Below are positions 4,950 through 33,722 of a stretch of DNA of 64,000 nucleotides, piece by piece (the first letter of the stretch is position 1; each line of letters starts with the position of its first letter). The stretch is taken from the IMG/VR virus record IMGVR_UViG_3300045120_000462. One strand, 5' to 3'. The DNA comes from a virus. The notes beneath the pieces are model-generated. The model saw only the letters and a list, made by a program, of their open reading frames with translations. It was not told where the DNA came from and made no database searches. A program made the translations under genes and the position numbers.

Positions 4950-4970
4950 ACGACGTACAACGACGTTGAA

Positions 4971-16998: not shown

Positions 16999-17010
16999 CG
17001 GGCAGCGAAC

Positions 17011-17016: not shown

Positions 17017-17022
17017 GAGACC

Positions 17023-17424: not shown

Positions 17425-17430
17425 GCTGTC

Positions 17431-17604: not shown

Positions 17605-17607
17605 CAC

Positions 17608-18192: not shown

Positions 18193-18202
18193 GGAAGAGA
18201 CC

Positions 18203-18361: not shown

Positions 18362-18363
18362 CC

Positions 18364-18744: not shown

Positions 18745-18768
18745 CCCCGGCCCTTCCAGGCCGTCGCT

Positions 18769-18774
18769 TACGCT
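18769..18774 (+). promoter_or_regulatory. -10-like hexamer
   Basis: CTTACGCT ggg GTG(18778) GTG(18781); the 6-nt spacing favours 18781 as the start. Confidence 0.35.
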
Positions 18775-18777
18775 GGG

Positions 18778-19260
18778 GTGGTGGACACCAACTGGCGAAT
18801 CAGCGTCGTCCGTAGCGTTGTTGCTCCGCTCATCATCGGGGTGGGCGTGTTGATGTTGATTCGTCTCGGTGGCGGCTCTCCCTTGTCCTCCATTGCGGGA
18901 GTCGCCACCATCTTCGCGATCGCCGTGGCGTGGTACATCGGCGCCCGTCTGGCCCAGCGCTCTCATCCGCAGCTCGGCTTCCTCCTCGGGGTATCGGTTC
19001 GACCTCGGTATGGAGAGGACGGTGAGAGCGAGCTAGCGCCGTCCCTGCGACGCACGCTCGTGCCGCTCGCCGTCGCCACGGCGGTCGGTTGCTTGGTTGG
19101 GGCGTTCATCGGGGGCGTCACGCCTGCACTGACCGTCGTGGCGACGGCACTTGCCTACTACGGGATCCTTCGCGCCGTCGAGGAACGTTCGGCGCCCGAC
19201 TCGACAGCTCGCAATGTCACCGGGCTGCTGCTCGGTGGGCGCGCCGTTCTGTACTACTGA
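18778..19260 (+). CDS. multi-pass membrane protein
   Basis: ORF 18778..19260; about 4 hydrophobic helices. Confidence 0.65.
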   Translation: MVDTNWRISVVRSVVAPLIIGVGVLMLIRLGGGSPLSSIAGVATIFAIAVAWYIGARLAQRSHPQLGFLLGVSVRPRYGEDGESELAPSLRRTLVPLAVATAVGCLVGAFIGGVTPALTVVATALAYYGILRAVEERSAPDSTARNVTGLLLGGRAVLYY

Positions 19261-19270
19261 GGAGCGTGGG

Positions 19271-20644
19271 GTGCCCAAGGAAGTCCGCCAGTACGGCAAG
19301 AAGGCACTGACGAAGCAGGCCGGCACGGGGTTGGAGGGGACCGCCACCAACTACACGCCCGAGCACATGGAGTCTCCCGATGTGCAGCGGACGATGGGCG
19401 AGATGCACGCTCGCCGGCTGTCGTTCGAGAACTCCCCCGGCAGTACTCGAATGCACTCACCGCTGCGCGGTGTCGGTGATCTCGACGTTGCGTACGAGAG
19501 CCGTGGCTGGCACGACATCGAGCGTCAGCACGGCGCCGCCGGCCCCTCGATGGGTGATTACAAGGAGCTGGCCGAGTCAGGCCACAACCCGTTCCCACAG
19601 CCGACCCGCTTCGAGGATCTGCCCGATGAAGAGCAGGCCCGCGCCCACGCTGGCTTGAAGGCGCACGGCACGTCGTACCGGCGCCTCGTCAACGACCTCG
19701 GGCGGGGACTAGACCGCGCCTACTCACGATCCAGTGAGATGGGCGGGATCCCGGTTGCCTCGAACTTCTACGAGCCGGAGGGTTTCCCTCGCCTGGTGAT
19801 CGCCCATCACATGCCCGAGGCGCCGGCCGAGCATGCTGCTGCGGCGATCGCCATGACGTCACCGAAGAACAAGTTCCTCCACGTGACGAACAAGGGTGCC
19901 GTGAACATGCCCAACATCAACTCCGCTGTGGCAGCGGGGTCGATCGCAACCAGTGGGCGCTACACGACGTCGGACCAGTTCAAGAAGATCCCCGGGCCGG
20001 AACTCAACAAGATCGGGCGCACGGTCAGTGGTGGTGGTGTCGGTCTCCACGGCAACGTGCGCAAGGCCGGCTACGCACTGCACCAGGGAGCCGAGGGCGG
20101 CGACATCTCCGAGTGGCGTGGCTTCCCGACGAAGGCCGCTCCGGCGGGCAGTAAGAAGGGTGGCGAACTCGGCGGCAGCCTCATCTTCGGAGGGTCGCCG
20201 AAGGCATCACCGTTTGCTTCATCGTTCATCGACGAGGCAGCGCCGTTCCATGTCACCGACGTGCACATGGCGTCGTTGGCGTTCCCGCACCTCTCGTCGA
20301 TCAAGGGTTCGGGCAAGAACATCAACCCGAGCGGCGCCAGTACCGGCACCAAGACCGAGCGCGAGCTGGCCGTCGAGCGTGTCCCCCACGCCCACGCCAT
20401 CATCGACCACGCCATGCGTACCGCCATGGGTGAGCGTGGCTTGAACAAGATCCGCTTCCAGCAGGGCGCCGCCTGGGGCGAGGAGCAGATCCACCGCACG
20501 ATCATGCCCGAGCCTGGTGGTCGGCGACTCGGGTTCCGTCCCGACACCGTCTACCAGTGGCAGGCAGCGACCATGCCGCACACGAACCTGAACTTCCGGG
20601 CACGTACCAAGGCGGGTGTTGGCACCCTCCACTTGCCAGACTAG
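19271..20644 (+). CDS. hypothetical protein (457 aa)
   Basis: GTG 19271 after GAGGAG; frame of ORF 19151..20644; no motif recognised. Confidence 0.65.
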   Translation: MPKEVRQYGKKALTKQAGTGLEGTATNYTPEHMESPDVQRTMGEMHARRLSFENSPGSTRMHSPLRGVGDLDVAYESRGWHDIERQHGAAGPSMGDYKELAESGHNPFPQPTRFEDLPDEEQARAHAGLKAHGTSYRRLVNDLGRGLDRAYSRSSEMGGIPVASNFYEPEGFPRLVIAHHMPEAPAEHAAAAIAMTSPKNKFLHVTNKGAVNMPNINSAVAAGSIATSGRYTTSDQFKKIPGPELNKIGRTVSGGGVGLHGNVRKAGYALHQGAEGGDISEWRGFPTKAAPAGSKKGGELGGSLIFGGSPKASPFASSFIDEAAPFHVTDVHMASLAFPHLSSIKGSGKNINPSGASTGTKTERELAVERVPHAHAIIDHAMRTAMGERGLNKIRFQQGAAWGEEQIHRTIMPEPGGRRLGFRPDTVYQWQAATMPHTNLNFRARTKAGVGTLHLPD

Positions 20645-20647
20645 AGT
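20642..20647 (+). promoter_or_regulatory. -10-like hexamer overlapping the upstream stop
   Basis: TAGAGT tatgac ATG(20654). Confidence 0.4.
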
Positions 20648-20653
20648 TATGAC

Positions 20654-20971
20654 ATGACATTGAATGACTCTGATCAGCCCCAGGACGACGTGTACTGGAA
20701 GCTCTCGTACAACATCAACCTGCCGCGCCCCAAGGTCAAGGTGCACCGGGTGGAGTGGGACGAGACGCAGGGCGTGCTGTTCGTCTACGTCTCGACGAGC
20801 AAGAACAAGCACCCCCGCGACGAGTACATCGACGGGATCCCGTTGTACGCCCCCGACGAGGACGGTGTCGACGTGCTCGTGGGCATGAACCCGGTGGCGC
20901 TCGGCGACCCGCCGCAGACGTTGGTCAAGGGGTGGCACCTCGACATGACTGAACGACTACTCGGGAGCTAG
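20654..20971 (+). CDS. hypothetical protein
   Basis: ORF 20654..20971. Confidence 0.65.
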   Translation: MTLNDSDQPQDDVYWKLSYNINLPRPKVKVHRVEWDETQGVLFVYVSTSKNKHPRDEYIDGIPLYAPDEDGVDVLVGMNPVALGDPPQTLVKGWHLDMTERLLGS

Positions 20972-20974
20972 CTG

Positions 20975-21535
20975 ATGACCACTCAGGATTCGTTGAGCCG
21001 GGAGCAGATGGGGCACCTGTTGGCCAACAAGCCTGAGGGGTTCAGCGTTCGTGCCTTTGCCCCCGATGTAGGCGAGAACGCCCATCACGGCTACATGGTC
21101 GCCATCGAGGGCCACGGTCAGGACTACCACCCTTCGGCTTCGGTGGACGAGGGGATGGACTTCGTTGCCAGGCGAGAAGAGGCGTTGCGCAAGCCCGAGC
21201 ACTACTTCGGTGGGTATCAGGGGTCCGACCCCGAGCGGACGGCTCTCGATGTCGCTCGCAAGCACCCCGACACGTTCTCTGGTCACGTTGCCGCCGGCAC
21301 TCAGGCGATGAGACTCAACCAGGAGGCGTACGGGCTACTTGGCGAACCAGACGACTACACCGACATGCCCAACCCCTACTACGAGTCAGGGGCTGGGCAT
21401 CATGCGCGGACGGTGAACATGGAGCAGATGGGGACGGCGATCCATCTCGCCGGCAAGCATCACCCCGGTGGGGGGATCGACTCGCCGGTTCCGTCTCGAT
21501 CAGCAGAGCTAGATCCGCCATCGAGGTTGCGGTGA
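20975..21535 (+). CDS. hypothetical protein
   Basis: ORF 20975..21535; 3' end overlaps the convergent gene by 76 nt. Confidence 0.6.
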   Translation: MTTQDSLSREQMGHLLANKPEGFSVRAFAPDVGENAHHGYMVAIEGHGQDYHPSASVDEGMDFVARREEALRKPEHYFGGYQGSDPERTALDVARKHPDTFSGHVAAGTQAMRLNQEAYGLLGEPDDYTDMPNPYYESGAGHHARTVNMEQMGTAIHLAGKHHPGGGIDSPVPSRSAELDPPSRLR

Positions 21536-21834
21536 TCAGCGCAGACCCAGCCCTCATCCTCCACGGCGACCGACGTCTTGCCACAGACGTGGCAGGGGTG
21601 GTTGGTCGTGAACTGCTTCGACCAGTCAGACAGCCCGCGTTCGTTGCGGACGCCCATGGCGGTGGAGAGCACCTTGCCGGCCGACCAGCGGCCGAAGTCA
21701 GTCGACTGGGTGAGCATCACCTGCTGGTAGTAGGCGATCTGCTCGATCAGCTCGTGGTCGGTGAGCGCCCGCAGCATCTCGGGGAGCGAGCCGGAACCAC
21801 TGAGGTGGTCTGTGGGCGTGATCGTCTTGTTCAT
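21460..21834 (-). CDS. hypothetical protein on the opposite strand (CHVC motif)
   Basis: ORF 21460..21852(-); ATG 21834 (MNKTITPT..) or 21852; palindrome in its upstream region. Confidence 0.55.
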   Translation of the reverse strand: MNKTITPTDHLSGSGSLPEMLRALTDHELIEQIAYYQQVMLTQSTDFGRWSAGKVLSTAMGVRNERGLSDWSKQFTTNHPCHVCGKTSVAVEDEGWVCADHRNLDGGSSSADRDGTGESIPPPG

Positions 21835-21838
21835 GACG

Positions 21839-21865
21839 TAGTCACGATACATCGTGTCGTGACTA
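21839..21865. promoter_or_regulatory. perfect 9-bp inverted repeat, candidate operator
   Basis: TAGTCACGA tacatcgtg TCGTGACTA, in the 53-bp gap between divergent genes 21834(-) and 21888(+). Confidence 0.5.
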
Positions 21866-21887
21866 CCAGCAACCGGAGGGGCCAGCG

Positions 21888-22142
21888 ATGATCAGCGGTC
21901 AGAACATCCGTCACGTCGGACCTCATCCCGAGCTGGCCTACATCGCCGAGGACACAGCGATGACCCCGGGGCAGCATGCCCTCGCCCAGGCGGCTCGGGG
22001 CCGGCCGCTTACCAGTGACGCGATCGGGGAAACAACAGGTTCCGACTACAGCGCTTCCGTAGCTCGTGCTCGGGCCAACGTTGTCTTCGAGGGACAGGAA
22101 CGTCGAGAGGGCGCCAGTCGTGCTCACGACAAACGCTCGTAA
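21888..22142 (+). CDS. hypothetical protein
   Basis: ORF 21888..22142; GGAGGGG SD. Confidence 0.5.
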   Translation: MISGQNIRHVGPHPELAYIAEDTAMTPGQHALAQAARGRPLTSDAIGETTGSDYSASVARARANVVFEGQERREGASRAHDKRS

Positions 22143-22156
22143 CAGAGGAGAACAAC

Positions 22157-22357
22157 ATGCACAGCCTGATGCTCGCCGTCGATGACGGCCTCATCTCCGG
22201 CAACGCCAACTTCGCAGACATCTGCTTCATCATCGCCATCGTGGCGGCGGTGCTGTCGGCGGTCGGCCAGTTCGGCGCCAACCAACTCACCAAGCACGCC
22301 GGCTGGCTTCTCGCCACCGCCGTCGCCTTCGTCGCTCTCGGGTGGTTGGTGCTTTGA
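22157..22357 (+). CDS. small two-helix membrane protein
   Basis: ORF 22157..22357; AGAGGAG SD; hydrophobic segments. Confidence 0.65.
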   Translation: MHSLMLAVDDGLISGNANFADICFIIAIVAAVLSAVGQFGANQLTKHAGWLLATAVAFVALGWLVL

Positions 22358-22359
22358 CG

Positions 22360-22365
22360 TACCGT
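22360..22365 (+). promoter_or_regulatory. -10-like hexamer within a repeated 12-mer
   Basis: GTACCGTTGAGG 22359-22370 is identical to 30757-30768; followed by an SD-led gene at 22395. Confidence 0.35.
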
Positions 22366-22394
22366 TGAGGCGAACACTCACAAGGAGAACTGCC

Positions 22395-22541
22395 ATGACC
22401 GAACCCACTCCCGAAACGACCGAGGACGCCAGCCGCCGCGAGCAGGCCAAGGCCCAACTCGGCGAGGCCGTCGAAGGCTTGAAGGCCGAGCTGGCCACCC
22501 GGCTCGACCAGTTCCTCGACGAGGTCGGCGCTCTCATCTGA
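22395..22541 (+). CDS. 48-aa coiled-coil protein
   Basis: AAGGAG SD; MTEPTPETTEDASRREQAKAQLGEAVEGLK... Confidence 0.5.
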   Translation: MTEPTPETTEDASRREQAKAQLGEAVEGLKAELATRLDQFLDEVGALI

Positions 22542-22542
22542 C

Positions 22543-23322
22543 GTGGCCGCACGACAGCAACGTCTCCCGGGGGTCGACTGGCACGAGGGTGACCTTCGAC
22601 GAGAGGAGTCCCTGGCTCAGGGCGCCAAGGCGTACGCCCGCGGCCAAGGACTCCCCTACCGCCCCGGGAACATTGCTGCCGTGCGCGCTGACCCCAGCGT
22701 CATGCACGCTGTCGGTGGGATCGTGCAATCCCAGCAGGGCGCCCCTCCGCACATGTCCGAGCAGTTGGCCGGCTCGTATGCCGCACTGCACGAGGGGATC
22801 AACCGTCAGTACGCACACCTCACCTCGCCGGTCGAGGAAGGTGGCCTCGGCATCACCCACGAGGTCTCTGCCGAAGACCCGTATGCCAACATCGGAGAGG
22901 CGATGGCCGACGTGCGACAGAATCGCCGTCTGCGCACGTTGGCCACCGCCGTAACGCAGTCAGGTGAGGGGCGCGAGGGATCTCCCGCCTACGCCAACCC
23001 GATGATGCCGCCCGAGATGAACGACAAGTTCCGGGCCGTGCACGACGCCTTCGGCCACCTGGCCACCGGGCGCAGCTTCGATCGTCACGGTGAGGCGGCG
23101 TCGTTCCAACACCACGCAGCGATGTTCCCGCCCGAAGCTCACGCCGCTATGGCCTCCGAGCTGCGAGCGCAGAACTCGGCGTTGATCCGCATGGGCAACT
23201 TCCCCGAGAACAAGCCCTACGACCTGCCGGCGTGGGCGTCACAGGTCAAGGCCACGCTGCCCGGCGTCAAGCGCGTCAGGATGTCGCCGGCACCGACGCT
23301 GTTCGACCAGGAGGACGCATGA
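22543..23322 (+). CDS. hypothetical protein
   Basis: ORF 22543..23322, GTG start. Confidence 0.65.
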   Translation: MAARQQRLPGVDWHEGDLRREESLAQGAKAYARGQGLPYRPGNIAAVRADPSVMHAVGGIVQSQQGAPPHMSEQLAGSYAALHEGINRQYAHLTSPVEEGGLGITHEVSAEDPYANIGEAMADVRQNRRLRTLATAVTQSGEGREGSPAYANPMMPPEMNDKFRAVHDAFGHLATGRSFDRHGEAASFQHHAAMFPPEAHAAMASELRAQNSALIRMGNFPENKPYDLPAWASQVKATLPGVKRVRMSPAPTLFDQEDA

Positions 23323-23498
23323 CCATCCGTGGCCGACACCCGATGCACGCCAACGATCCACCGAAGCAGCCGAGCAAAGAGGTCGAGTTGTACACCGACC
23401 CGTACACGTGGAGTGAGGAACGGCTCGATGAGTGGGCGGCAAGCGAGCCGGTGACCAAGGCTGCTGCATGGTTGCGAGACCACAACGGCCCGTTCTAG
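23319..23498 (+). CDS. hypothetical protein
   Basis: ATG 23319 overlaps stop (ATGA); frame of ORF 23232..23498. Confidence 0.55.
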   Translation: MTIRGRHPMHANDPPKQPSKEVELYTDPYTWSEERLDEWAASEPVTKAAAWLRDHNGPF

Positions 23499-23507
23499 GG
23501 AGAGACC

Positions 23508-23681
23508 ATGGCGATCAGAGGTAAGAGCAACAAGAGGACGCCGCAGATCGGCGAGGAGTGGAACGACCCTCGTGTCGACGAGTACGGCGACCCCGGTGAC
23601 GAAGGGTTCGAGAAGCAGCTCTGGCGGGCCACCGCCAAGCCGCCACCCGGCCCCGTCAACCCCGTCAAGGATTGGGACTAG
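23508..23681 (+). CDS. 57-aa hypothetical protein (MAIRG N-terminus)
   Basis: GGGAGAG SD; MAIRGKSNKRTPQIGEEW... Confidence 0.5.
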   Translation: MAIRGKSNKRTPQIGEEWNDPRVDEYGDPGDEGFEKQLWRATAKPPPGPVNPVKDWD

Positions 23682-23683
23682 CA

Positions 23684-23899
23684 ATGGCCATCAGAGGACG
23701 AGTCCCACGCTTCGGTGTCGGTGACACCGTGCACGTGCCGAGTGTCGGCCCGGTCACCGTCAACAAGATGGGCAAGCGCTACTTCTCGGGCACGAACCGA
23801 GACACGGGCGACGCTGTCGGCGACACCGGCATCGAGTTGGCCGCTGGCCAGACGATGAAGGGCACCAATCCGTGGAAGGTCGAGAAGGGAGCTGAGTGA
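23684..23899 (+). CDS. hypothetical protein (MAIRG N-terminus)
   Basis: Frame of ORF 23672..23899; ATG 23684; MAIRGRVPRFGVGDTV... Confidence 0.55.
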   Translation: MAIRGRVPRFGVGDTVHVPSVGPVTVNKMGKRYFSGTNRDTGDAVGDTGIELAAGQTMKGTNPWKVEKGAE

Positions 23900-24033
23900 T
23901 GCCAGGAGGCAAGGATCCCGGTCCTTCGATCAAGAAGCCCGCTGAGTACGAGGCGTTGAAGAAGAAGGGGATGTCGAAGTCGAAGGCGGCTGCCATCTCC
24001 AACGCCGACGCCAAGAAGGAGAAGAAGAAGTAG
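23899..24033 (+). CDS. 44-aa basic Lys-rich protein (GPSIKKPxxYEALKKKGMSK type)
   Basis: ATG overlaps stop by 1 nt; MPGGKDPGPSIKKPAEYEALKKKGMSKSKAAAISNADAKKEKKK, resembles a small conserved actinobacterial family. Confidence 0.5.
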   Translation: MPGGKDPGPSIKKPAEYEALKKKGMSKSKAAAISNADAKKEKKK

Positions 24034-24173
24034 TGGCCACGCTCCTGTGGATCTTGGCGGTGCTGTGCATCGTCTTCGGTGTGGTGCGCCTCATCCAGGG
24101 AGCGATCCTGTGGGGTCTCGTGCTGATCGTCGTCGGACTGATCCTCGGCGGCGGAGGCATCGGAGTCCACTAA
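24033..24173 (+). CDS. 46-aa two-helix membrane peptide
   Basis: GTG overlaps TAG by 1 nt; VATLLWILAVLCIVFGVVRLIQGAILWGLVLIVVGLILGGGGIGVH. Confidence 0.5.
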   Translation: MATLLWILAVLCIVFGVVRLIQGAILWGLVLIVVGLILGGGGIGVH

Positions 24174-24973
24174 TGGTTGCTCTCCACCAGCGCATCTACC
24201 GGGGCGAGATCCGTGGGGCGTTCCCGACGTACGAGCACCCGGACCCGGCGGCACACGCCGCCGAGGATCCCGAGGGCTTCCTGCACAAGTGGATGCAGCC
24301 GCACTACCCGTTCCCCAAGGGTTGGACCGGCGACGCCCCCACCGTCGGTCAACACTGGACGCGCTCGCCGCAGGCCATCCCCGAGCGGTTCGTGGAGCCG
24401 ATGCTCCACCAGGCGCAGCCGGGCGTGCCGATGGGCAAGCGCGAGCAGACCGCCGTGATGCGCCGGGAGGCGACCGAGCAGGACACAGGTGGCCCGGGCT
24501 ACGGCATGCCCGGCCACGAAGAGCACCGGGCGATGATGGACAAGTTCCACTCGTACGCCGAGCGCGCCGAGCGCGAGGGCATCAACACGTACCACGATCT
24601 CTCCGGCGGTGACCCCGATCGCCCGGGCAAGGCGCGCAAGTACAACATGGCCGTGGTGTGGGAGGGCCAGCAGCACGAGCGTGGCGAGACCGGCACCAAC
24701 TACGAGGACGAGACGAACATCCCCTTCGGCGAGCACGTCACCGTTACCGGGGCGCGTCTCTACGTACCGAAGTCAGGTTCGGTGCACGACTTCGGCCAAC
24801 GGCACCCGTCGCCGTTCACGTCCGAGGAGCGTGCGTTCGCCCATCACGAGACGATGAACCGCTCGGGCTACAGCGCCATCAACCCGTCGTCGTCCGTCCC
24901 GTGGAGCCGCATACAGTTCGCCAACGCCGTGGAGTTGAAGGTCGGCCGTAACCCTGGTCAGTGGAGTCGGTGA
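24173..24973 (+). CDS. hypothetical protein with possible R-S-ExE ADP-ribosyltransferase-like motifs
   Basis: ATG 24173 overlaps TAA by 1 nt; frame of ORF 24047..24973; IYRGE, HWTRSP, YEDETNIPFGEHVTVTG. Confidence 0.55.
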   Translation: MVALHQRIYRGEIRGAFPTYEHPDPAAHAAEDPEGFLHKWMQPHYPFPKGWTGDAPTVGQHWTRSPQAIPERFVEPMLHQAQPGVPMGKREQTAVMRREATEQDTGGPGYGMPGHEEHRAMMDKFHSYAERAEREGINTYHDLSGGDPDRPGKARKYNMAVVWEGQQHERGETGTNYEDETNIPFGEHVTVTGARLYVPKSGSVHDFGQRHPSPFTSEERAFAHHETMNRSGYSAINPSSSVPWSRIQFANAVELKVGRNPGQWSR

Positions 24974-25003
24974 CTTCTAACCCGGCCGGCGACCCCTGCG
25001 AAC

Positions 25004-25009
25004 TACGGT
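25004..25009 (+). promoter_or_regulatory. -10-like hexamer, leaderless architecture
   Basis: AACTACGGT tggttc ATG(25016). Confidence 0.45.
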
Positions 25010-25015
25010 TGGTTC

Positions 25016-25414
25016 ATGGCTAAGCACGAGCACATGTCGGCTGCATCAGCGCTGACCCATGCGGCGCTGATCGGTCACGTCATTCGAGGCACGGTGTTGG
25101 AGGGCAAGTCGTTCGGCGACGCCCACGCTGATGCGCGCAGCGCTGTTGGGGATGCTTCTGACGCCTTCCAGCGTCAGCCCTACCAAGACCCGTCCTCACA
25201 GGCCACCGGGCCGATGATCGATGAAGCGTTCTACCCAGTCCCCGCAGGGAGCCTCGACATCAACTCGGGGGATCTCTTCGACACCAGCGGCAAGCCGCTG
25301 GTCGGCCCAGCCGCCAACCGGGTGAACCAGGAAGCAAGGCTCGCCGAACAGGATCGATCGTGGAGAGCGTTCCATTCCGTCCACTCCCCAGGAGCGCGCA
25401 TAGCTCCACCGTGA
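25016..25414 (+). CDS. hypothetical protein
   Basis: ORF 25016..25414. Confidence 0.6.
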   Translation: MAKHEHMSAASALTHAALIGHVIRGTVLEGKSFGDAHADARSAVGDASDAFQRQPYQDPSSQATGPMIDEAFYPVPAGSLDINSGDLFDTSGKPLVGPAANRVNQEARLAEQDRSWRAFHSVHSPGARIAPP

Positions 25415-25427
25415 TCAGGGGCGTAAC

Positions 25428-25433
25428 TACGCT
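25428..25433 (+). promoter_or_regulatory. -10-like hexamer, leaderless architecture
   Basis: AACTACGCT gggtcc ATG(25440). Confidence 0.45.
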
Positions 25434-25439
25434 GGGTCC

Positions 25440-25901
25440 ATGGCAGCCCCCGCACCCGTACTCACGATCACGCCTGGCACGGCGACGCTGACGATGGCGA
25501 ACCTCGCCCCGACTGTGCAGCTCGCCGACACCGGCACCCACTCCCCCGTCGCTGACAGCCGCGCCTTCAAGATGGACGGCGCCACGGTGAAGTCGACGGT
25601 GGGGCCATCGGGCGCCGGCATCAGCACCGCCGTGCCGTACCCAGTCGCCCTCACAGGAGGAACGCATCAGGGCACGGTGACCACCGTCAGTGCCGGCGGC
25701 TCGACCACGAGCGCCAACGTGCCGATCGTTGTCACTGACTCGGTCGCCGCCGCCAACACGCTGTACACCGACAGCAATGGCAACGCCGTGCGCATGCACC
25801 CCAGCCTGCTTTCCAACGAGTACCGCGACCCGACGATGTGCACGCCGGGACCGCAGACGGCGTCGGGGATCTACAACGCACGTACCCGCGGCTCGATCTA
25901 G
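25440..25901 (+). CDS. Ig-like (Big_2-like) domain protein
   Basis: ORF 25440..25901; VLTITPGTATLTMANLAPTVQLADTG pattern; beta-rich T/S/V composition. Confidence 0.55.
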   Translation: MAAPAPVLTITPGTATLTMANLAPTVQLADTGTHSPVADSRAFKMDGATVKSTVGPSGAGISTAVPYPVALTGGTHQGTVTTVSAGGSTTSANVPIVVTDSVAAANTLYTDSNGNAVRMHPSLLSNEYRDPTMCTPGPQTASGIYNARTRGSI

Positions 25902-26098
25902 TGCCGAGGGTGGCGGACCCACCCGGGCCTGGTGAGCGTGAGACATCGGCCCGGCTCCGCTTCGACGAGCGGCGCGCCCTGATCGAGGCTGCCGGCGATC
26001 CGCACAAGGGTGTCGATGTGATCACGCCACGCATGGAGCGCATCCGAACCGAGCTGTCGCACCTCTTCAAGAAGGCGGCGACCGATGCCAGCCGATGA
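25901..26098 (+). CDS. 65-aa hypothetical protein
   Basis: GTG 25901 overlaps TAG by 1 nt; frame of ORF 25838..26098. Confidence 0.45.
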   Translation: MPRVADPPGPGERETSARLRFDERRALIEAAGDPHKGVDVITPRMERIRTELSHLFKKAATDASR

Positions 26099-26546
26099 GC
26101 ATCTCGGCAAGCAGTTCAAGGTGTACCACGGCACGCAGTATCCATGGGAGGGACCGCCGAGCGCATCGCCCGAGCACCCGCTCCACGTCGCCAGCAACAC
26201 CGACCTCCCCGGCGACTACGCCTTCCCCGTCGGGGGTTACGACCCCGCCGAAGACTACGAGTCGATGACTCGTGGTCGCATCAGGGAGTACGCCGTCGAC
26301 CCCGCCGCCAAGATCCATCACACCGAGGAAGGTCACTTCGACGGCATCCTCTCGCCAGAGGGGCAGGAGCAAGCCAAGGGCCACGACATGACGATGTTCA
26401 AGGAAGGTCTCGGCATCGTCTACAACCCGGCCGTGCTCCATCACGTTCGCGACATTGGCTACAAGGAGCACATGCACTCCGATCCAGAGGACGAGATGGA
26501 GTACATGCACGGCGAGGACTGGCGCCACCACCTGCGCAGGCGATGA
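26085..26546 (+). CDS. Arr-like (ADP-ribosyltransferase fold) protein, divergent paralogue
   Basis: ORF 26085..26546; ADEHLGKQFKVYHGTQY..HVASNTDLPGDYA..GRIREYAVDP. Confidence 0.5.
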   Translation: MPADEHLGKQFKVYHGTQYPWEGPPSASPEHPLHVASNTDLPGDYAFPVGGYDPAEDYESMTRGRIREYAVDPAAKIHHTEEGHFDGILSPEGQEQAKGHDMTMFKEGLGIVYNPAVLHHVRDIGYKEHMHSDPEDEMEYMHGEDWRHHLRRR

Positions 26547-26857
26547 CTGCCACCGACCACCTCAACCGTGAGCTGTTCCACGCCACGACGCACCCGTTTC
26601 AAATCGGCGACGTGGTCAACCCCACCGACACCGAGCACAGCGAGACACCGATGGCGTTTGCCACGCCCGACTTGGGCCTCGCCAACTCGATCGCCCGTGG
26701 CAAGGCCCGCTGGCACAACAAGCGCAACCCTGATGACCAGAGGACCGGACACGTCTTCGCTGTCGAGCACATGAGTGAGCCGGCCGATCTGTGGATGCCG
26801 AGCAGGTACGTCGCAGACCCCGCTGGGTTCCGAGTCGTACGTAAGGTTGAGCAGTGA
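26543..26857 (+). CDS. Arr-like (rifampin ADP-ribosyltransferase fold) small protein
   Basis: ATG 26543 overlaps stop (ATGA); LFHATTHPFQIGDVVNP / MAFATPDLGLANSIA / GHVFAVEHMSEP / SRYVADPAGFRVVRKVE parallel the Arr blocks FYHGTKANLAIGDLL / IYFSAL..AVWGAELA / YIYIVEPTGPFE / SYRTCEPLRIVGVVE (Arr sequence recalled from memory). Confidence 0.55.
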   Translation: MTATDHLNRELFHATTHPFQIGDVVNPTDTEHSETPMAFATPDLGLANSIARGKARWHNKRNPDDQRTGHVFAVEHMSEPADLWMPSRYVADPAGFRVVRKVEQ

Positions 26858-28554
26858 GCGTTGCCTTCTGGCCCCCGAGCTACCGCGCCGGTACCTCCGA
26901 CCTCTCGATCCAGATCTCCCCTCTCGGGCTGGTCGACCTCTCCAACGAGGAGATGGACGTCCACGGGATCCGGCTGTCTCGGTACTCGCTGTATTGGGCG
27001 CACTACCTCGGCCACCACTGGGCGTACCGACGAGAGATCGGCGAGCCGCAGTTCACGTTCAACTACGTGCGCGCTCTGTCGGACTACCTCACCAACTTCA
27101 CCTTCGGCCGCGGCGTGACCTTCCAGTCGCCGCCGGCTACCTCGGCCATCATCCCGGCGATCTTGAAGCGGGTGTGGGAGCAGGACAACCGCAAGGCATC
27201 GATCCTGTGGGAGATGGGCCAGATCGCCTCGGTGACCGGTGACCTCTTCGTCAAGGTGGCGTACGAAGATCCCTTCGTCGACTCGGCGGGCCGGCTACAT
27301 CCTGGCCGTGTCCGCATCCTCCCTCTGAACCCGGCCAACTGCTTCCCACAGTGGCACGAGCACGACCGACAGCGGATGCTCTCGTTCAAGTTGAAGTACC
27401 GGTTCTTCTCGACCGACCAGACCGGCACCCGCATCGTCAACACGTACATCGAGCGGATCACCGACACGGGCATCGAGGAGTACGTCAACGACGAGCTGAT
27501 CTCGGCGCGGCCGAACCCGCTCGGCGTGATCCCGATCGTCTACGTCCCCAACATCCTGATCTCAGGATCGCCGTGGGGGATGAGCGACATCGCCGAGATC
27601 ATCCCGCTCAATCGCGAGTACAACGAGAAGGCCGTCGAGATCTCCGACATCGTCAACTACCACTCCGCTCCCGTCACGGTGATCACCGGGGCCAAGGTGC
27701 CGCAGTTGGAGAAGGGTGCGCGCAAGACGTGGTTCCTGCCCAAGGACGCCAAGGTCGAGACCCTGCAGTCCACGTGGCAGCTAGAGCACATGCTCGGCTA
27801 CATGGACGTCGTCAAACGAGGGATGCACGAGATGACCGGCGTGCCCGAGCAGGCGCTCGGTCAGGTGCAGCCGATCAGCAACACGAGCGGCGTGGCGCTG
27901 GCGATCCAGTACGCCCCGACGATGCAGCGCTTCCGCATGAAGAAGAACAACTTCGAGTCGGGCTTCCAGCAGATCAACGAGCTGGTGATCCTCACGCTGT
28001 TCCAGAAGGAACCGCAGTCGATGATGTTCAACCCCATGGAGGACACGGCGCCCAAGCCGGGCCAGCTCACACAGCTCGACCCCGCTGACCCCAACAGCTA
28101 CGAGACGTCGACCTACTGGCCCGAGCCGTTGCCGGTCGATATCCTCGTCAAGCTCAACGAGATCACGCAGAAGATGCAGCTCGGGTTGGAGTCCAAGCGC
28201 GGTGCGCTCGCCGACCTTGGTGAGGAGTTCCCCGACGACAAGCTCGCCGAGATCTTCGCCGAGATCCTCGAAGACGCCAAGGATCAGGGTGCGTTGCAGT
28301 TGCAGACCTCGGCGATCCAGGCGGCGATCGTCGCCCTCACCGGAATGGTCCCGGCTACTGGCGAGCCGGCCGACCCCGGTGGGGGCGGTGGCGATGGCCA
28401 GGGCGTCAACAAGCCCGATGCTGGTGGTACCGGCACAATGCCCGGTCTCGTGCTCGACCAGAACACGATGAACCTGATGAATGAGCTGACCACTCGTGCC
28501 TACATGCCGCGCATGGGACAGTTCCGTAACCCGGCCAACACCAGTAACGAGTAG
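26854..28554 (+). CDS. portal protein
   Basis: 566 aa; GTG overlaps stop (GTGA); LYWAHYLGHHW motif near the N-terminus, size, and position upstream of scaffold and capsid. Confidence 0.85.
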   Translation: MSVAFWPPSYRAGTSDLSIQISPLGLVDLSNEEMDVHGIRLSRYSLYWAHYLGHHWAYRREIGEPQFTFNYVRALSDYLTNFTFGRGVTFQSPPATSAIIPAILKRVWEQDNRKASILWEMGQIASVTGDLFVKVAYEDPFVDSAGRLHPGRVRILPLNPANCFPQWHEHDRQRMLSFKLKYRFFSTDQTGTRIVNTYIERITDTGIEEYVNDELISARPNPLGVIPIVYVPNILISGSPWGMSDIAEIIPLNREYNEKAVEISDIVNYHSAPVTVITGAKVPQLEKGARKTWFLPKDAKVETLQSTWQLEHMLGYMDVVKRGMHEMTGVPEQALGQVQPISNTSGVALAIQYAPTMQRFRMKKNNFESGFQQINELVILTLFQKEPQSMMFNPMEDTAPKPGQLTQLDPADPNSYETSTYWPEPLPVDILVKLNEITQKMQLGLESKRGALADLGEEFPDDKLAEIFAEILEDAKDQGALQLQTSAIQAAIVALTGMVPATGEPADPGGGGGDGQGVNKPDAGGTGTMPGLVLDQNTMNLMNELTTRAYMPRMGQFRNPANTSNE

Positions 28555-28621: not shown

Positions 28622-29494
28622 ATGACGGACAGCATCACGGTTACACCCGACCCCGCCGACAACAACGGTCAGATCGCCTTCAACACCTCGTCGTCGACCT
28701 CCACCTTCGATCCCAACCTCGGCAACACCGGTACCGGGTTCCTCGTCGGCACGCAGCCGGCGCCGGCAACGCAGCGCACCACTGCTCCGCAGGGCCACAC
28801 GCTCACTCCCGAAGAGATCGCAGCGCTCGGTGCGCAAGGAGTTGCTCCGCAACTGCAGCAGATCACCAGTTCACAGCAGACGATGGAGCAGCGCATGGCG
28901 GCGATGCAGGCCGAGATCGATCTGGCCAAGTCCGAGCGCGAGGCCGCACAGACCGCCGCTGCCGATGCCGAGGCCGCTCGTCTCGCTGCCGAGACCGCCG
29001 CTGCCGAACAGGAGATGTCGGCGACCGAGTTGGTCGGCAAGGTCCGCGAGGAGATGCAGCAGCAGTTCGAGCAGCTTCGTGCTGCCGCTGATGCGAGCAA
29101 CGCCATCCTCGAACAGGAGCGCCACTTCCAGGCGCTGCAGGAGTACAAGAACAACCGGCTCGCCGAGCCGGAGATCGCCGCCGCCGTGATGCCGCACCTC
29201 CACCAGTACATCGTCGGCAACACCGAGCAGGAGATCGAGGAGGCCATCGCCCGGGCCGCTGCCACATCCAGCAACATCCTTGGCGAGTTCCAGTCGTACC
29301 AGCAGTCGTATCGCCAGCAAGCTCCTGGCGTCTCCACCGCCGTACCGACCGCCGGCCCGATGGAAGCTCAGGCATCGCAGCAGACGATGTCGGCCCAGCA
29401 GATCGCCGCACTGCCGCCGGCCGAGTACGCACGTCTGCGCCCGCAGTTGCTGCGTGCCGCTGGTGACGCCTACCGCGCCCAGCAGGGTCGATAG
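28622..29494 (+). CDS. scaffolding protein
   Basis: GCGGAGG SD; Ala/Glu/Gln-rich coiled coil; lies between portal and major capsid. Confidence 0.75.
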   Translation: MTDSITVTPDPADNNGQIAFNTSSSTSTFDPNLGNTGTGFLVGTQPAPATQRTTAPQGHTLTPEEIAALGAQGVAPQLQQITSSQQTMEQRMAAMQAEIDLAKSEREAAQTAAADAEAARLAAETAAAEQEMSATELVGKVREEMQQQFEQLRAAADASNAILEQERHFQALQEYKNNRLAEPEIAAAVMPHLHQYIVGNTEQEIEEAIARAAATSSNILGEFQSYQQSYRQQAPGVSTAVPTAGPMEAQASQQTMSAQQIAALPPAEYARLRPQLLRAAGDAYRAQQGR

Positions 29495-29575: not shown

Positions 29576-30703
29576 ATGCCCGATATCTCAGGTGGCATCT
29601 CGGGTACTGGCAACCTGTACTCGGGCGTGTCCGGTGGTTCCAACCCGGCTGCCGTGCCGGTTGGTGGTGCCTTCCTCGGTGTGCAAGCGCCGCCAGCGCC
29701 GTCTGGCCTCGTCACTCAGGGCTACCCGCAGGGCACTGCGATCACCGGCTCGACCTCGCTCACCCCGGCGATCCAGACGGTGTGGAGCCGGGAGATCCTC
29801 TTCCAGGCGATGCCCATTCTGCGCTTCGAGCAGTTCGCCGTGAAGAAGACCGAGCTGGGAGTCACTCCCGGTTTGACCATCAACTTCATGAAGTACAACA
29901 ACCTCGACGTGGACTCCGTCAACGGCGCAGCCCTCACCGAAGGTGTGCGCATGAGCACTCGGGCGCTGTCGGCGTTCCAGTACCGCATCCTCGTCGGCGA
30001 GCAGGGAACGGCCGTCGCCGTCTCCGAGCTGCTCCTCCACGCTTCGTTCGATGACGTGATGGCTTCGGCCTCGCGTCTGCTCGGGCGCCACATGGCGCAG
30101 AGCATGGACTACCAGGCCCGCAACACGCTGATGCTGGCGCCCGGGTCCGAGGTCTACGGGTACGACAAGGCGGCTCCCTACCAGGGCAGCTCGACCAACA
30201 TCTATGACCCCGGTACCAAGGCAGCCAGCGCTGCCGGCGTGACCGGCGCCGTCGCCGCCACCAACCGCTACCTGCTCACTCCTCATACCGTGAAGGACGC
30301 TGTGCAGGCGCTCGCCTCGCTCAACATCCCCCGGCTCGGCGAGACGTACGTGCAGTTCGTGCACCCGGCCCAGGCCCGTCGTCTTCGTGACACGCCCGAG
30401 TGGATCGAGGTGACCAAGTACGCCGCTCCCGGGAACTTCATGCTTGGCGAGATCGGCCGCATCAACGACGTCGTGTTCATCGAGACCACGCAGGTCAACT
30501 TCGCTGCGGCCGGCGCCGGCAACAACTACTACGACGGCCTGATGATCGGCGACAACGCCTTCGGGCACGCCGTGTCGCTCCCTGTCGAGCTGCGTGACGG
30601 CGGAGTCCTCGACTTCGGCCGGGAGCACGCCCTCGCCTGGTACGCCATTTGGGGTTGGGGTTCGATCACGCCGCAGGCCGTGGTCCGCACGCTCACCAAC
30701 TGA
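29576..30703 (+). CDS. major capsid protein (HK97-fold type)
   Basis: AAGGAG SD; 375 aa; position after scaffold; strong terminator downstream. Confidence 0.85.
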   Translation: MPDISGGISGTGNLYSGVSGGSNPAAVPVGGAFLGVQAPPAPSGLVTQGYPQGTAITGSTSLTPAIQTVWSREILFQAMPILRFEQFAVKKTELGVTPGLTINFMKYNNLDVDSVNGAALTEGVRMSTRALSAFQYRILVGEQGTAVAVSELLLHASFDDVMASASRLLGRHMAQSMDYQARNTLMLAPGSEVYGYDKAAPYQGSSTNIYDPGTKAASAAGVTGAVAATNRYLLTPHTVKDAVQALASLNIPRLGETYVQFVHPAQARRLRDTPEWIEVTKYAAPGNFMLGEIGRINDVVFIETTQVNFAAAGAGNNYYDGLMIGDNAFGHAVSLPVELRDGGVLDFGREHALAWYAIWGWGSITPQAVVRTLTN

Positions 30704-30769: not shown

Positions 30770-31105
30770 GTGGCTGCAGACGAGCACCTCGGGCTGCAGT
30801 TCGAGTACGAGCACTTCCCGCCGTCCGAGAGTGGTGTCTCGTTCGATCAGCACCGGATCTACGCCAACGTCGGTGACACCGAGGTCGGCCACATGTCGTG
30901 GAGCCAGAAGGGCATCCACTACATCGAAGCGCGCCGACCTCGACAGGGCATCGCTACAGCGTTGTGGAACGAAGGCCATCGACTGGCTGCGGAGAACCCG
31001 AGCATCGTCAAGCCGGCGCACACTGCCGACCGCACCGACTCCGGTGACGCCTGGGCGCGAGCGGTCGGTGGGCGCCTTCCCCGGCGCAAGAGGGACGAAG
31101 GTTAG
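30770..31105 (+). CDS. hypothetical protein (N-terminus ADEHLGLQF shared with 26085 product)
   Basis: ORF 30770..31105; IHYIEARRPRQGIATALWNEGHRLA is weakly GNAT-like. Confidence 0.55.
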   Translation: MAADEHLGLQFEYEHFPPSESGVSFDQHRIYANVGDTEVGHMSWSQKGIHYIEARRPRQGIATALWNEGHRLAAENPSIVKPAHTADRTDSGDAWARAVGGRLPRRKRDEG

Positions 31106-31511: not shown

Positions 31512-31829
31512 ATGGCCACCAGTAAGTCATCCTCGACGGCAGAGACGCCGGAGCAAGTCACCACTGACGTTCCGCCAGACGAGAACGCTCCGGCCGAACC
31601 GGAGCAGGTGGAGACCACGCCGGAGGAGAACGTTCCCGTCCTCCCGCCGACGTTGGCGGAGGCCGGCCTCGTCGGTGTCGTCGGCGTCACCGCCGGCCAG
31701 TACTCGACCCCGAGCGGATCGTTCTACGCCGTCTCGCCGGGGCAGTCGTATGTCGTGTCGAGTGACGACGCCGACTCTCTCGTCGAGCAGGGCGCAGCGG
31801 TCAAGATCGACAACGCCTCCGCTGGCTGA
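31512..31829 (+). CDS. hypothetical protein, acidic Pro/Glu-rich N-terminus
   Basis: ORF 31512..31829. Confidence 0.6.
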   Translation: MATSKSSSTAETPEQVTTDVPPDENAPAEPEQVETTPEENVPVLPPTLAEAGLVGVVGVTAGQYSTPSGSFYAVSPGQSYVVSSDDADSLVEQGAAVKIDNASAG

Positions 31830-33277
31830 TGCCGTACAACGTCCCCAATTCGGCGGACGTTCCCGCCATCGACCTTGCCGAACCGGACAACGCTGACTTC
31901 CTAGCTCTCGGGTTCCAACGGACAGGAGTCGTCTCCGGCGGGGCTGTCACGCAGTCGGGCACGCCGGCCATGTCGGTGCTGGTCGCCGCCGCCGAGATCA
32001 TCATCGACGGAGCGCCCTACACCAAGTCCTCGGCCACGGTCGTGCTCGACCCGGCGACGTCCTCGCCGCGCTTCGACATCATCGGGTGGAACCTCTCCGG
32101 CAACCCGGTGGCGATCAAGGGGACACCGAGCGGCACCAACGCAGTGGTGCCGGCGTTCGACCCGACGATCTTCTGCATGACAGCGATCGTCTACATCGGC
32201 GCCAGCGCCGTCTCGATCACCAACGCCTACATCGTCCAGAAGCAGGTCTCCCCGAGGATCAGCCTGAGGCACAACTACGTCGCCGACACCGACGTGGTGC
32301 TCGACTGGTCGACGCCGACGAAGGCGAGTGGGTTGAGGGCGTTCGCCAACGGAACCCTGCAATGGGTCTCGTCCACTCTCTCCCGTACCACCGACACGGC
32401 AATGGAGTGGGCGACGTCGTTGCTCATCCGGCAGAACGCCTCGGGCACGCCGAGCTTGATCTTGAAGTCGGCGACGCCGAGCGGGTTGAAGGGCGACTAC
32501 ATCCTGCAGGTGCAGCCGCAGACGACGACGAACACGATCGCCGGCATCGACACCACCGGGCGCCTCTCCGGCCTGAACATGCGAGCCGGCGCCGGCTCCC
32601 CCGAGGGAGCGGTCACCGCCGACCGCGGCACGCTCTACCTCAACGAGACAGCCACAGGCGGCAACGACGCTCTGTACGTGAAGACGACCGACAGTGTTCC
32701 CACCGGGTGGGTGGCGCTCGGTGCCTACGTCTCTTCGGCGCAAGCGATCCCGGTCGGTGGTGTGGTGGCGTGGCCGGGCATCATCGGCGCCGACACCGTC
32801 CCGTCGGGCTACCTGTGGTGCGACGGCAGCGAGCAGTCGCAGGCGACCTACCCGGCGCTGTCAGGATTCTGCGGGACGAAGTTCGGCACGGCCGCTGTCG
32901 GCAACTTCAAGCTGCCCGACTACCGCGGGCGCACGCTGTTCGGTGTCGACGGCACGCTCGCCACGACGCCCGGTGTCAACATCGGCGCCGACTCGTTGAC
33001 GCTGTCGATCGACCAGATGCCGGTGCACTCTCACGTTGTCCAAGACCCACAGCACGAGCACCCACAGCCGGGCTACTACCCATACGTCGTAGCGCAGGCG
33101 TACCTGCCGCGCTTCGCCATGTTGAAGAACACCGGCTCCGGTATCGGCATCGACACCGTGGATGGCACTACCTCGCACCTGGCTTCCACCGGGGTCACGG
33201 TGGCGCCGGCTGGCAACTCGCAGCCCTTCTCGACCTACCAGCCGTCGCAGTCGACCAACTTCATCATCAAGACGTGA
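31829..33277 (+). CDS. fibre-like protein with C-terminal phage tail-collar domain
   Basis: 482 aa; PVGGVVAWPG..VPSGYLWCDGSEQSQATYPALSGFCGTKFG..GNFKLPDYRGRTLFG matches the tail-collar pattern. Confidence 0.75.
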   Translation: MPYNVPNSADVPAIDLAEPDNADFLALGFQRTGVVSGGAVTQSGTPAMSVLVAAAEIIIDGAPYTKSSATVVLDPATSSPRFDIIGWNLSGNPVAIKGTPSGTNAVVPAFDPTIFCMTAIVYIGASAVSITNAYIVQKQVSPRISLRHNYVADTDVVLDWSTPTKASGLRAFANGTLQWVSSTLSRTTDTAMEWATSLLIRQNASGTPSLILKSATPSGLKGDYILQVQPQTTTNTIAGIDTTGRLSGLNMRAGAGSPEGAVTADRGTLYLNETATGGNDALYVKTTDSVPTGWVALGAYVSSAQAIPVGGVVAWPGIIGADTVPSGYLWCDGSEQSQATYPALSGFCGTKFGTAAVGNFKLPDYRGRTLFGVDGTLATTPGVNIGADSLTLSIDQMPVHSHVVQDPQHEHPQPGYYPYVVAQAYLPRFAMLKNTGSGIGIDTVDGTTSHLASTGVTVAPAGNSQPFSTYQPSQSTNFIIKT

Positions 33278-33278: not shown

Positions 33279-33722
33279 ATGGCTGCTCGGCAGAAGATCT
33301 CCGTCGACCAGTTCGGAGACCTCTTCCACGGCACCTCTTCGGCGGCTGACGCCACTGACGAGTTGGCCCAGCACGTTGGTGGTCATCGCTACAGCGCCAT
33401 GCAGAAGTCCTTCGGCTGGAACTACGCCACCACCAGCAAGCACGAGGCGTGGCAGTACGCCGACGACGCAGCACAGAGCGACACCCGGCGCACTGGCGTC
33501 CAGCACCATCCACGGGTGTTCCAGGTGCAGCCGAAGCGGCGCAGCGAGACGTGGGGACCGGATCCCGACAGCGGCCCCAACGGCTTCAATGACGGTCCTG
33601 CCAACAAGCGTGATGCGCTCGACTACGCCGAGAACGGCAGCCCTGTGTCCCTGAGGTTCAGGTCACCACTGAGGGTGGTCGGTGGACTGGTTCGTAACCC
33701 GGAAGGAGACTTCGACTCATGA
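33279..33722 (+). CDS. Arr-like (ADP-ribosyltransferase fold) protein
   Basis: ATG 33279 in frame of ORF 33162..33722; DLFHGTSS / WNYATTSKHEAWQYADDAA / RVFQVQPKRRSETWGPDPD / SLRFRSPLRVVGGLV parallel the Arr blocks. Confidence 0.5.
   Translation: MAARQKISVDQFGDLFHGTSSAADATDELAQHVGGHRYSAMQKSFGWNYATTSKHEAWQYADDAAQSDTRRTGVQHHPRVFQVQPKRRSETWGPDPDSGPNGFNDGPANKRDALDYAENGSPVSLRFRSPLRVVGGLVRNPEGDFDS

Follow-up and report, generated by a model that had tools for sequence, protein, structure and literature searches.

Two small overlapping genes lie directly upstream of the portal gene in the virus of IMG/VR record IMGVR_UViG_3300045120_000462, and the question raised by this locus is what kind of proteins they encode and what such proteins would do among virion genes. 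The stretch analysed, 64,000 nucleotides long and hereafter called the window, carries them on its + strand as open reading frame (ORF) A (26085-26546, 153 aa) and ORF B (26543-26857, 104 aa). A first-pass annotation had described the two as a tandem pair of small proteins resembling Arr, the rifampin ADP-ribosyltransferase. Both genes were found where it had placed them, each of the peptide strings that it cited occurs in one of the two translations, and its Arr strings are those of Arr-2 (9iba_A). From sequence profiles and predicted structure, ORF B is very probably an Arr-clade protein with the ADP-ribosyltransferase (ART) fold. The predicted structure of ORF A indicates that it, too, probably has an ART fold, and both proteins begin with a short leader that recurs on otherwise unrelated proteins.

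Predicted ART folds of ORF B, ORF A and ORF D

Single-sequence searches with ORF B of Pfam and NCBIfam (E <= 1), of PHROG and of the PDB sequences found nothing relevant, and a profile built from its eight close full-length metagenome relatives (61-89% identity) had no match in the PDB. The Smith-Waterman score of ORF B against Arr-2 was 32, which was equalled in 58 of 500 shuffles and is not above chance. No match of the region to GenBank phages was obtained by megablast, and a scan of GTDB genomes found no relatives of ORF B. When 1.84 billion cluster representatives were searched exhaustively with a profile, 133 relatives were recovered, mostly of 95-135 aa, and the family profile used below was made from an alignment of 95 sequences (A3) with approximately 30% identity to ORF B. 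When this profile was searched against 177,635 PDB sequences (E <= 10), the sole matches were three Arr entries, namely 2hw2 and 9iaf (both E 0.002) and Arr-2 9iba (E 0.0047). Pfam Arr-ms (PF12120) was matched by 41 of the 95 members at E <= 1, the best at E 7.9e-8; beyond Arr-ms, 12 members matched DUF3990 and nine matched ART-PolyVal (PF18760).

The AlphaFold2 model of ORF B (predicted local distance difference test score, pLDDT, 78) showed the split beta-sheet of the ART fold. Arr structures occupied the top three places in the Foldseek search with this model, led by 2hw2 (E 2.9e-4, probability 1.0, template modelling score 0.63) and followed by 9iaf and 9iba. The weaker matches, pertussis toxin S1, RES, ParT and KptA, are all ART folds as well. 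The kinship of ORF B with Arr is significant because of the family profile and the predicted structure, not because of pairwise similarity. The block-by-block parallel to Arr drawn in the first-pass annotation was borne out, since the same four blocks are paired in the alignment of the hidden Markov models (HMMs).

The positions expected to line the nicotinamide adenine dinucleotide (NAD+) pocket are well conserved in the ORF B family. The beta-1 His, H13, is invariant (95/95); it stands in the motif HG[TS] in the family and in FHAT in ORF B, so that G14, found in 86 members, is Ala in the window protein. T/S15, G22, V74 and G95 are each kept in 94 of the 95 sequences, A40 in 91 and E75, part of VEH in ORF B, in 78. 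Position 39, the beta-2 aromatic, is aromatic in 92 members (Tyr in 52, Phe in 33, Trp in 7) and is Phe in the window. V75-E76-P77 of Arr pairs with V74-E75-H76 of ORF B in the HMM alignment. D82 of ORF B, invariant in the eight close homologues, stands at +7 relative to the Glu, opposite D83/D84 of Arr (+7/+8). An acidic residue 4-10 positions past the VE[P/H] strand was present in 82 of 87 relatives, as part of 'DP' in 30 of the 87. In Arr-ms, H19 (of HGT), Y49 and D84 are critical by mutagenesis (PMC6092378). The ORF B family thus has a conserved His, a beta-2 aromatic and an acidic residue; set against HGT, Y49 and D84 within DPN[VL] of Arr, ORF B itself has H-A-T, F39 and D82 within 'PADLW', which lacks the P-N.

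Arr (PF12120; 2HW2, 9IAF, 9IBA) is, like ORF B, a small single-domain ART, and both follow the same order of elements: beta-1 with HG[TS], a G-D turn, beta-2 with aromatic-x-[ST], a helix, the [YF]xVE[PH] strand, an acidic loop and a C-terminal G-F/L-R-V strand. They differ in size (104 aa for ORF B versus 143-151 aa for Arr), in the leader, which Arr does not have, and in setting, ORF B being encoded in a phage virion operon and Arr in a chromosome or integron. The ORF B chain stops at a point corresponding to Arr-2 residue ~121, where the Arr helix alpha-2 would start. The main rifampin pocket of Arr is formed by the helix alpha-2 residues M126, L130 and L133 together with A139 and I141 (PMC6092378). 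In the ORF B sequence we found no helix alpha-2 motif M[RK][DE]xL, no A139/I141, no SN[YF], no DPN[VL] and no [LV]TK[KR]P loop, and ORF B did not reach the curated threshold of the Arr family (PF12120 / NCBIfam rifampin_ARR). Since all the rifampin-binding elements are missing, the loops as well as the C-terminal helix, a role of ORF B as a rifamycin-resistance enzyme was rejected. Judged from its sequence, it is an Arr-type ART core in fold and not an Arr enzyme.

ORF A had been taken for a degenerate Arr-like version of the same protein. This held for the ART fold, as determined with Foldseek, and not for the affinity, because ORF A is closest to PARP and PolyVal ARTs and only its first ~22 residues align with the ORF B family. 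Six full-length metagenome homologues were found (56-78% identity), in which H15, D72 and 59 other columns are invariant; a second profile search added two fragments and nothing more. Six family members had no Pfam match even at E <= 10, PF18760 included, and PHROG and NCBIfam gave none for ORF A either. PDB searches with the ORF A sequence or a profile of its close homologues found nothing relevant. The Smith-Waterman score against Arr-2 (29) was equalled in 253 of 500 shuffles, and tblastn against GenBank phages gave only a chance-level match to Salmonella jumbo phages (E 0.1). The evidence for ORF A came from its AlphaFold2 model (pLDDT 74, from a six-sequence alignment). Foldseek matched this model in the PDB to the catalytic domains of PARP2, tankyrase and PARP1 (E 5e-3, probability 0.96-0.98). 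In BFVD, the matches (E 1.4e-5 to 1e-3) were entries named 'PolyVal ADP-Ribosyltransferase', 'PARP catalytic domain-containing protein' and 'ART-PolyVal-like domain'.

The elements of ORF A follow the order seen in ORF B, with beta-1 VYHGT (H15), beta-2 LHVAS, a helix, the strand IREYAV and D72-P73. The active site of PolyVal ARTs consists of His, Tyr and a strand-5 Asp (PMC5512222). H15 (VYHGT) and D72 (AVDP) are the candidate active-site residues of ORF A, and the strand-2 Tyr position is taken by V/I35, beside an invariant H34. Alignment with hhalign of ORF A and the ORF B family covered residues 1-22 (MpAdEHl..Q.kVyHGT against MaAsDhL...LFHGT, Prob 52%), and full-length paralogy was not recovered by this method beyond the N-terminal ~22 residues. 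Of the H-Y-(D/E) arrangement that the first-pass annotation had proposed to look for, the His and the acidic residue were found in both proteins; the Tyr is absent from ORF A and is represented by Phe at the aromatic position of ORF B. Because ART matches were obtained, by profile and Foldseek for ORF B and by Foldseek for ORF A, and because neither the His nor the acidic residue is missing, the reading of both as ART-fold proteins is supported.

Two weak structural matches may be mentioned here. One joins the ORF A model to a Microbacterium phage protease-MuF fusion protein, presumably with an ART domain. The other joins the models of both ORF A and ORF B to the pre-ejectosome of cyanophage A4 (chain B, 9k3a_B; E values of 0.87 and 0.12), which hints that an ART-like domain may exist in a virion protein that another phage ejects.

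The ORF B family profile, run by hmmsearch over all ORFs of the window, revealed a third paralogue of Arr type, ORF D (E 2.6e-9). It is located directly 3' of the collar/fibre gene (33279-33722, +; 147 aa) and carries the motifs LFHGT, NYATT, VFQVQP (Gln replacing the Glu of the family), GPDPD and PLRVVG, without a full leader. Its PLRVVG strand closely resembles PLRIVG of Arr, and it matched NCBIfam rifampin_ARR at E 0.01 with 15.6 bits against a cut-off of 250. From these residues, ORF A, which lacks the Tyr, and ORF D, with Gln for Glu, may have altered chemistry or be inactive.

The tandem pair at the portal is real in the window, and neither the pair nor its position proved to be conserved among the related loci (L001-L019) compared with it. 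In L003-L006, whose portal proteins are 88-94% identical, an orthologue of ORF B lies immediately 5' of the portal gene; its 5' neighbour in L003-L005 is a protein of ~330 aa with an HExxH motif instead of ORF A. In a second group with portal proteins ~61% identical, an orthologue of ORF B (L001, L007, L008) or of ORF A (L002) is found in the tail module, in the collar-sheath interval, so that ORF A is missing from L001, L007 and L008, and ORF B from L002. Since relatives carry either gene alone, the two do not make up an obligate system, and the adjacency to the portal is local rather than defining. ORF B family members in relatives are always within the structural module and often in tandem arrays. 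Among distant relatives, one 6-kb contig (56% GC) has three copies with other ART-like ORFs, and a contig of 46% GC has two copies. The genes are accessory and mobile, and virion operons are their setting.

Several features of these loci were recorded in addition. The HExxH (zincin-like) proteins 5' of the ORF B orthologue occupy ~1900-2910 in L003 and ~7100-7990 in L005, and in L004 a 422-aa HExxH protein (3880-5148) itself bears the leader. A dense array of ART-like genes was seen on L009, a 6.2-kb contig of a metagenome-assembled genome (MAG) in NCBI (JBJKNJ010005519.1), where three ORF B-family copies stand with ORFs containing GYHAT, GAHGT or GRHIT. On this contig two different proteins carry copies of one 25-residue N-terminus, MAVDPGILRRNSIKLSESNQMTTGA, and the motifs 'QLSLGI' and PGQLSLDGENGV, which resemble clamp-binding or encapsulin cargo peptides, recur near C-termini.

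A leader shared by unrelated small proteins

ORF A and ORF B begin with versions of a 12-residue leader with the consensus M-[AP]-A-x-[DE]-H-[LVM]-[SGN]-x-x-Q-[FL]. In ORF A it reads MPADEHLGKQFK (MPADEHLGKQF; 26085-26120, +) and in ORF B MTATDHLNRELF (MTATDHLNREL; 26543-26578, +). A third copy in the window, VAADEHLGLQFE (VAADEHLGLQF; 30770-30805, +), begins ORF C, a 111-aa non-ART protein encoded 3' of the major capsid gene (30770-31105, +). Over all candidate start codons of the window, 0.15 such leader starts were expected and 3 were observed. Within the 95-member ORF B family, M1 is present in 94 sequences, A3 in 67, D/E5 in 75, H/N6 in 59 and L7 in 67.

In the window and loci L001-L019, the leader begins exactly at the start codon in no fewer than 10 distinct protein families, the bearers being in the window itself and in L001, L003-L008, L011, L016 and L019. 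Besides the ARTs, these families include two proteins with the GNAT-like motif R-x-x-G-x-A, proteins with the ParB-like (D/E)GHHR motif, the 422-aa HExxH protein, proteins of 209 and 71 aa of unknown type, and a 69-aa Cys-rich protein on another viral contig. The non-ART types (GNAT-like, ParB-like, HExxH) were named mostly from sequence motifs and weak matches. A 151-aa leader-bearing protein corresponds to the C-terminal domain of the ParB-fusion PHROG phrog_2579 (E 1.5e-40), while GNAT was matched in Pfam only below threshold (E 0.14-0.27, with the ORF C orthologue). ORF C has the GNAT-like motif RRPRQGIATALWNEG (R-x-x-G-x-A), and its orthologues in L003-L006 likewise follow the capsid gene. 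In L003-L005 up to three extra leader genes separate the two, indicating a variable cassette region.

The leader codons vary synonymously among bearers and the DNA 5' of them is unrelated. Residues 1-7 of the ORF B model and 1-8 of the ORF A model had pLDDT values below 50 and are predicted to be disordered. The leader is also modular, as N-termini are swapped between orthologues: the window ORF starting at 23672 begins with MAIRGRVPRFGVGDTVHV, and its orthologue in L005 (4768-4983) begins with MAAHDHLGAQFGVGDTVHV, containing the leader MAAHDHLGAQF. Taken together, the synonymous codon variation, the unrelated 5' DNA, the anchoring at Met1, the predicted disorder, the modularity and the excess of leader starts indicate selection on the leader peptide rather than on the DNA. 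A nucleotide element shared by these genes, such as a promoter, a ribosome-binding site or a recombination site, was rejected because the 5' DNA is unrelated and the codons differ. In the adjacent window ORFs 23508-23681 and 23672-23899 (+), MAIRG[KR] occurs at or near both starts.

Proposed function and its alternatives

The layout of the genes bears on when the proteins would be made. The TGA of ORF A and the ATG of ORF B overlap as ATGA (gcgATGActg, 26543-26546), and the TGA of ORF B overlaps the GTG start of the portal gene as GTGA (caGTGAgc, 26854-26857), with AAGG ~8-11 nt 5'. No promoter-like sites were detected in 21-34 kb of the window, and terminator-like hairpins there were as frequent as in shuffled sequence, that is, at chance level. 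Because of these start/stop overlaps, the lack of a promoter-like site and the chance-level terminators, ORF A, ORF B and the portal gene are read as probably one co-transcribed, translationally coupled unit. Identical copies of ORF A and ORF B are present on a 111,442-bp JGI contig. Among cultured phages, the Streptomyces myoviruses BRock, LuckySocke, Alone3 and GiJojo, of 112-116 kb, come nearest, their capsid proteins being 62% identical. A capsid gene 80% identical was found on a contig binned with a Nocardioidaceae MAG, which carries no ART genes. Since Streptomyces phages and the Nocardioidaceae MAG contig have the nearest capsid genes, the host is probably an actinobacterium.

ORF A, ORF B and ORF D are accessory genes that have been inserted into the late virion operon of an uncultured myovirus of the BRock-like, Streptomyces type. 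ORF B would be a minimal stand-alone NAD+-dependent ART of the Arr branch of the H-Y-[E/D] clade, and ORF A and ORF D would be its divergent ART-fold paralogues. Translation coupled with that of the portal would place synthesis of the proteins at the time of head assembly. NAD+ would be held by the beta-1 HG[TS] His, the beta-2 aromatic and the acidic residues at and after VE[P/H] (E75 and D82, the latter the equivalent of Arr D84), and ADP-ribose would be transferred to a host macromolecule or another non-rifamycin substrate. On the conserved residues and the model, we lean slightly towards ORF B at least being an active transferase on a non-rifamycin target. The leader would load the proteins into the capsid, from which they would enter the next host with the DNA, as do T4 Alt and the internal proteins tagged with a capsid-targeting sequence (CTS). 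Delivery of the ORF A and ORF B proteins in the virion through the leader is possible but doubtful. The same tentative standing is given to the broader idea that the leader may be a portable capsid-loading tag, with which actinophage-type myoviruses and uncultured phages (46-67% GC) would pack an interchangeable arsenal of small proteins for co-injection. The first-pass annotation had likewise thought of toxins delivered with the DNA; the shared leader lends delivery some independent support.

Loss of catalysis is unlikely, though credible as an alternative. The proteins would then be decoys or sponges binding NAD+ or ADP-ribose, or minor proteins that have a structural or assembly role in the head or neck and retain the ART fold. 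The missing beta-2 Tyr of ORF A, the Gln of ORF D in place of the conserved Glu, A14 and F39 of the window ORF B, and the location amid structural genes in every relative would all suit it. Yet the beta-1 His is kept in all 95 family members, and HG[TS], the aromatic and VE[P/H] persist across ~30% identity, as is typical of a maintained active site; the Phe at the aromatic position is shared by 33 of the 95. An essential structural role fits poorly with genes that are missing from the closest cultured relatives and shift position between relatives. The proteins could instead be true Arr-type modifiers of small molecules, acting on rifamycin-like antibiotics or diffusible anti-phage metabolites and so protecting the infected cell or phage replication. 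Arr is the closest characterised relative, the kinship with Streptomyces phages places the likely hosts amid rifamycin and anthracycline producers, and Iyer et al. 2022 proposed such a role for the Arr-family ARTs of Microbacterium and Gordonia phages (PMC9503650). ORF B, however, has none of the rifampin-binding elements listed above (helix alpha-2, A139/I141, SN[YF], DPN[VL] and [LV]TK[KR]P), and tandem arrays together with a leader common to non-ART proteins fit macromolecular effectors better, which makes modification of small molecules quite unlikely, although some other small-molecule substrate is conceivable.

That ORF A, ORF B and ORF D are NAD+ glycohydrolases, which deplete NAD+ or destroy NAD+-derived immune signals, is improbable. 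RES and other ART NADases do degrade NAD+ (PMC9503650) and RES was among the weak Foldseek matches of ORF B, but the RES and ParT matches had E values of ~1 or more, and the nearest relatives, Arr, PolyVal ART and PARP, are transferases. The ATGA overlap, suggestive of coupled and stoichiometric expression, would also be expected if ORF A and ORF B formed a toxin-immunity (toxin-antitoxin-like) module in which one ART-fold protein neutralises the other. ART-fold toxin systems of this kind exist (ParT/ParS, RES/Xre and DarT/DarG), and ParT and RES appeared among the weak structural matches. The two genes are nevertheless not co-conserved, with an HExxH protein in place of ORF A in L003-L005 and single genes in L001, L002, L007 and L008, and the family of ORF A comprises ~8 sequences compared with more than 130 representatives for ORF B. 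This gene distribution largely refutes the pair, and we consider it very improbable.

A number of observations weigh against packaged, active ARTs as the products of these genes. ORF B by itself has no Pfam match, and two of its pocket residues, A14 and F39, differ from the consensus G and Y of the family. The AlphaFold2 models of ORF A and ORF B were computed from shallow alignments, and one of five models was confident in each case. The ART assignment of ORF A is a structure-only one, and its family is small, with eight sequences in 5.8 billion. The portal-adjacent position is not kept in more distant relatives, and in the BRock-like cultured phages, including LuckySocke, neither a family member nor the leader was found in the corresponding region. 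No MuF domain was detected with Pfam or PHROG in ORF A, ORF B or their neighbours, so the MuF association suggested in the first-pass annotation was not upheld. No protease family was found among the genes scanned from TerL to the tail, a search not exhaustive for novel proteases, and hence no prohead protease. An HExxH peptidase as the obligatory processor of the leader was rejected for this phage, as none occurs in the TerL-to-tail part of the window.

The closest precedent for packaging of an ART together with small proteins is T4. Its CTS is a 10-residue N-terminal peptide on unrelated internal proteins, which loads them or fused foreign proteins into the prohead, and the packaged ART Alt has terminal propeptides that are cut off by the prohead protease (PMC9026906). 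The likeness to the window group lies in a late ART and variable, unrelated small proteins with an N-terminal peptide of ~10 residues (T4 IPI, IPII and IPIII), whose genes lie within or close to a myovirus head module, and in gene content that varies between related phages for the CTS set and the leader-bearing set alike. A short N-terminal peptide on otherwise unrelated proteins was thus found here as in T4, and the prohead protease that goes with the CTS was not. The leader sequence is unrelated to the CTS, no protease or cleavage site was found here, and packaging has been shown for T4 and is inferred for the window. Alt is, moreover, an R-S-E ART of ~76 kDa, unlike ORF A and ORF B.

The ART-PolyVal/Tox-ART-HYD2 domains (PF18760; Iyer et al. 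2017, PMC5512222) are phage ARTs with a strand-1 His and a strand-5 Asp; their coding regions accompany late or virion genes, and packaging followed by injection is predicted for them. They are domains of one giant polyvalent polypeptide, whereas the modules of the window group are separate proteins of 70-420 aa sharing a short leader. ORF A lacks their strand-2 Tyr, and neither ORF A nor ORF B matches the Pfam family directly. The module types that co-occur here, as judged from motifs and weak matches, mirror the polyvalent hub domains ART, MPTase, DdrB-ParB and GNAT (PMC5512222). The leader system would then be an 'unbundled' counterpart of polyvalent proteins and would have arrived independently at the principle of the T4 CTS, possibly with no proteolytic step to remove the peptide.

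Phage ARTs are enriched in myoviruses, with ~44% in head-packaging contexts (Iyer et al. 2022, PMC9503650). Those of the rifampin-ART family were reported from Microbacterium and Gordonia phages and Sinorhizobium phage PBC5 (PMC9503650) and are, like ORF B, Arr-clade ARTs in phages, including actinobacterial ones. The leader-bearing minimal subfamily is not close to these genes, because tblastn of ORF B and two relatives (P0027 and P0017) against 50,697 GenBank phage records gave no match. ARTs beside head genes and Arr-clade enzymes in actinophages were therefore already known, and our finding extends known biology; new are the minimal leader-bearing subfamily known only from metagenomes, the paralogue arrays and the leader itself. 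With ~100 residues, ORF B and its relatives are among the smallest ART domains, and, having a conserved pocket and no known substrate, they would be a good system in which to study the role of an Arr-type scaffold that does not bind rifamycin. Fast-diverging tandem paralogues in virion operons point to an arms race with host defences. The leader offers a testable handle on the loading of capsid cargo outside the T4 group and, if it is a loading tag, would be useful for protein delivery by engineered actinophages.

The late operon and neighbouring genes

The window has a GC content of 64%, and its + strand holds the complete late operon of a contractile-tailed phage. The large terminase gene (TerL; phrog_2, E 1.6e-29) lies at 15412-16998. 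The portal gene, a 566-aa ORF at 26854-28554 whose start overlaps the stop of ORF B, matched Pfam SPP1_portal (E 3.7e-24) and phrog_64 (E 3.3e-41). It is followed on the same strand by a coiled-coil scaffold-like ORF (28622-29494), the major capsid gene (29576-30703; phrog_1357, E 1.7e-61), the collar/fibre gene (31829-33277) and the tail sheath gene (37108-38724).

The gap between terminase and portal (16998-26854) contains ~10 kb of small, mostly unannotated genes, compared with 1.8 kb in Streptomyces phage LuckySocke (L014), and looks like an expanded accessory-gene zone. One ORF in it, 22543-23322, matched phrog_3170 (function unknown; E 1.1e-29). LuckySocke has a tRNA cluster just 5' of its terminase gene, and no tRNA genes were found in positions 1-64000 of the window. 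The major capsid protein has ~55 additional N-terminal residues (29576-29740, +), rich in Gly, Ser, Pro and Ala, relative to the BRock-like capsids and the PHROG profile, and its alignments to both begin at residue ~53-58.

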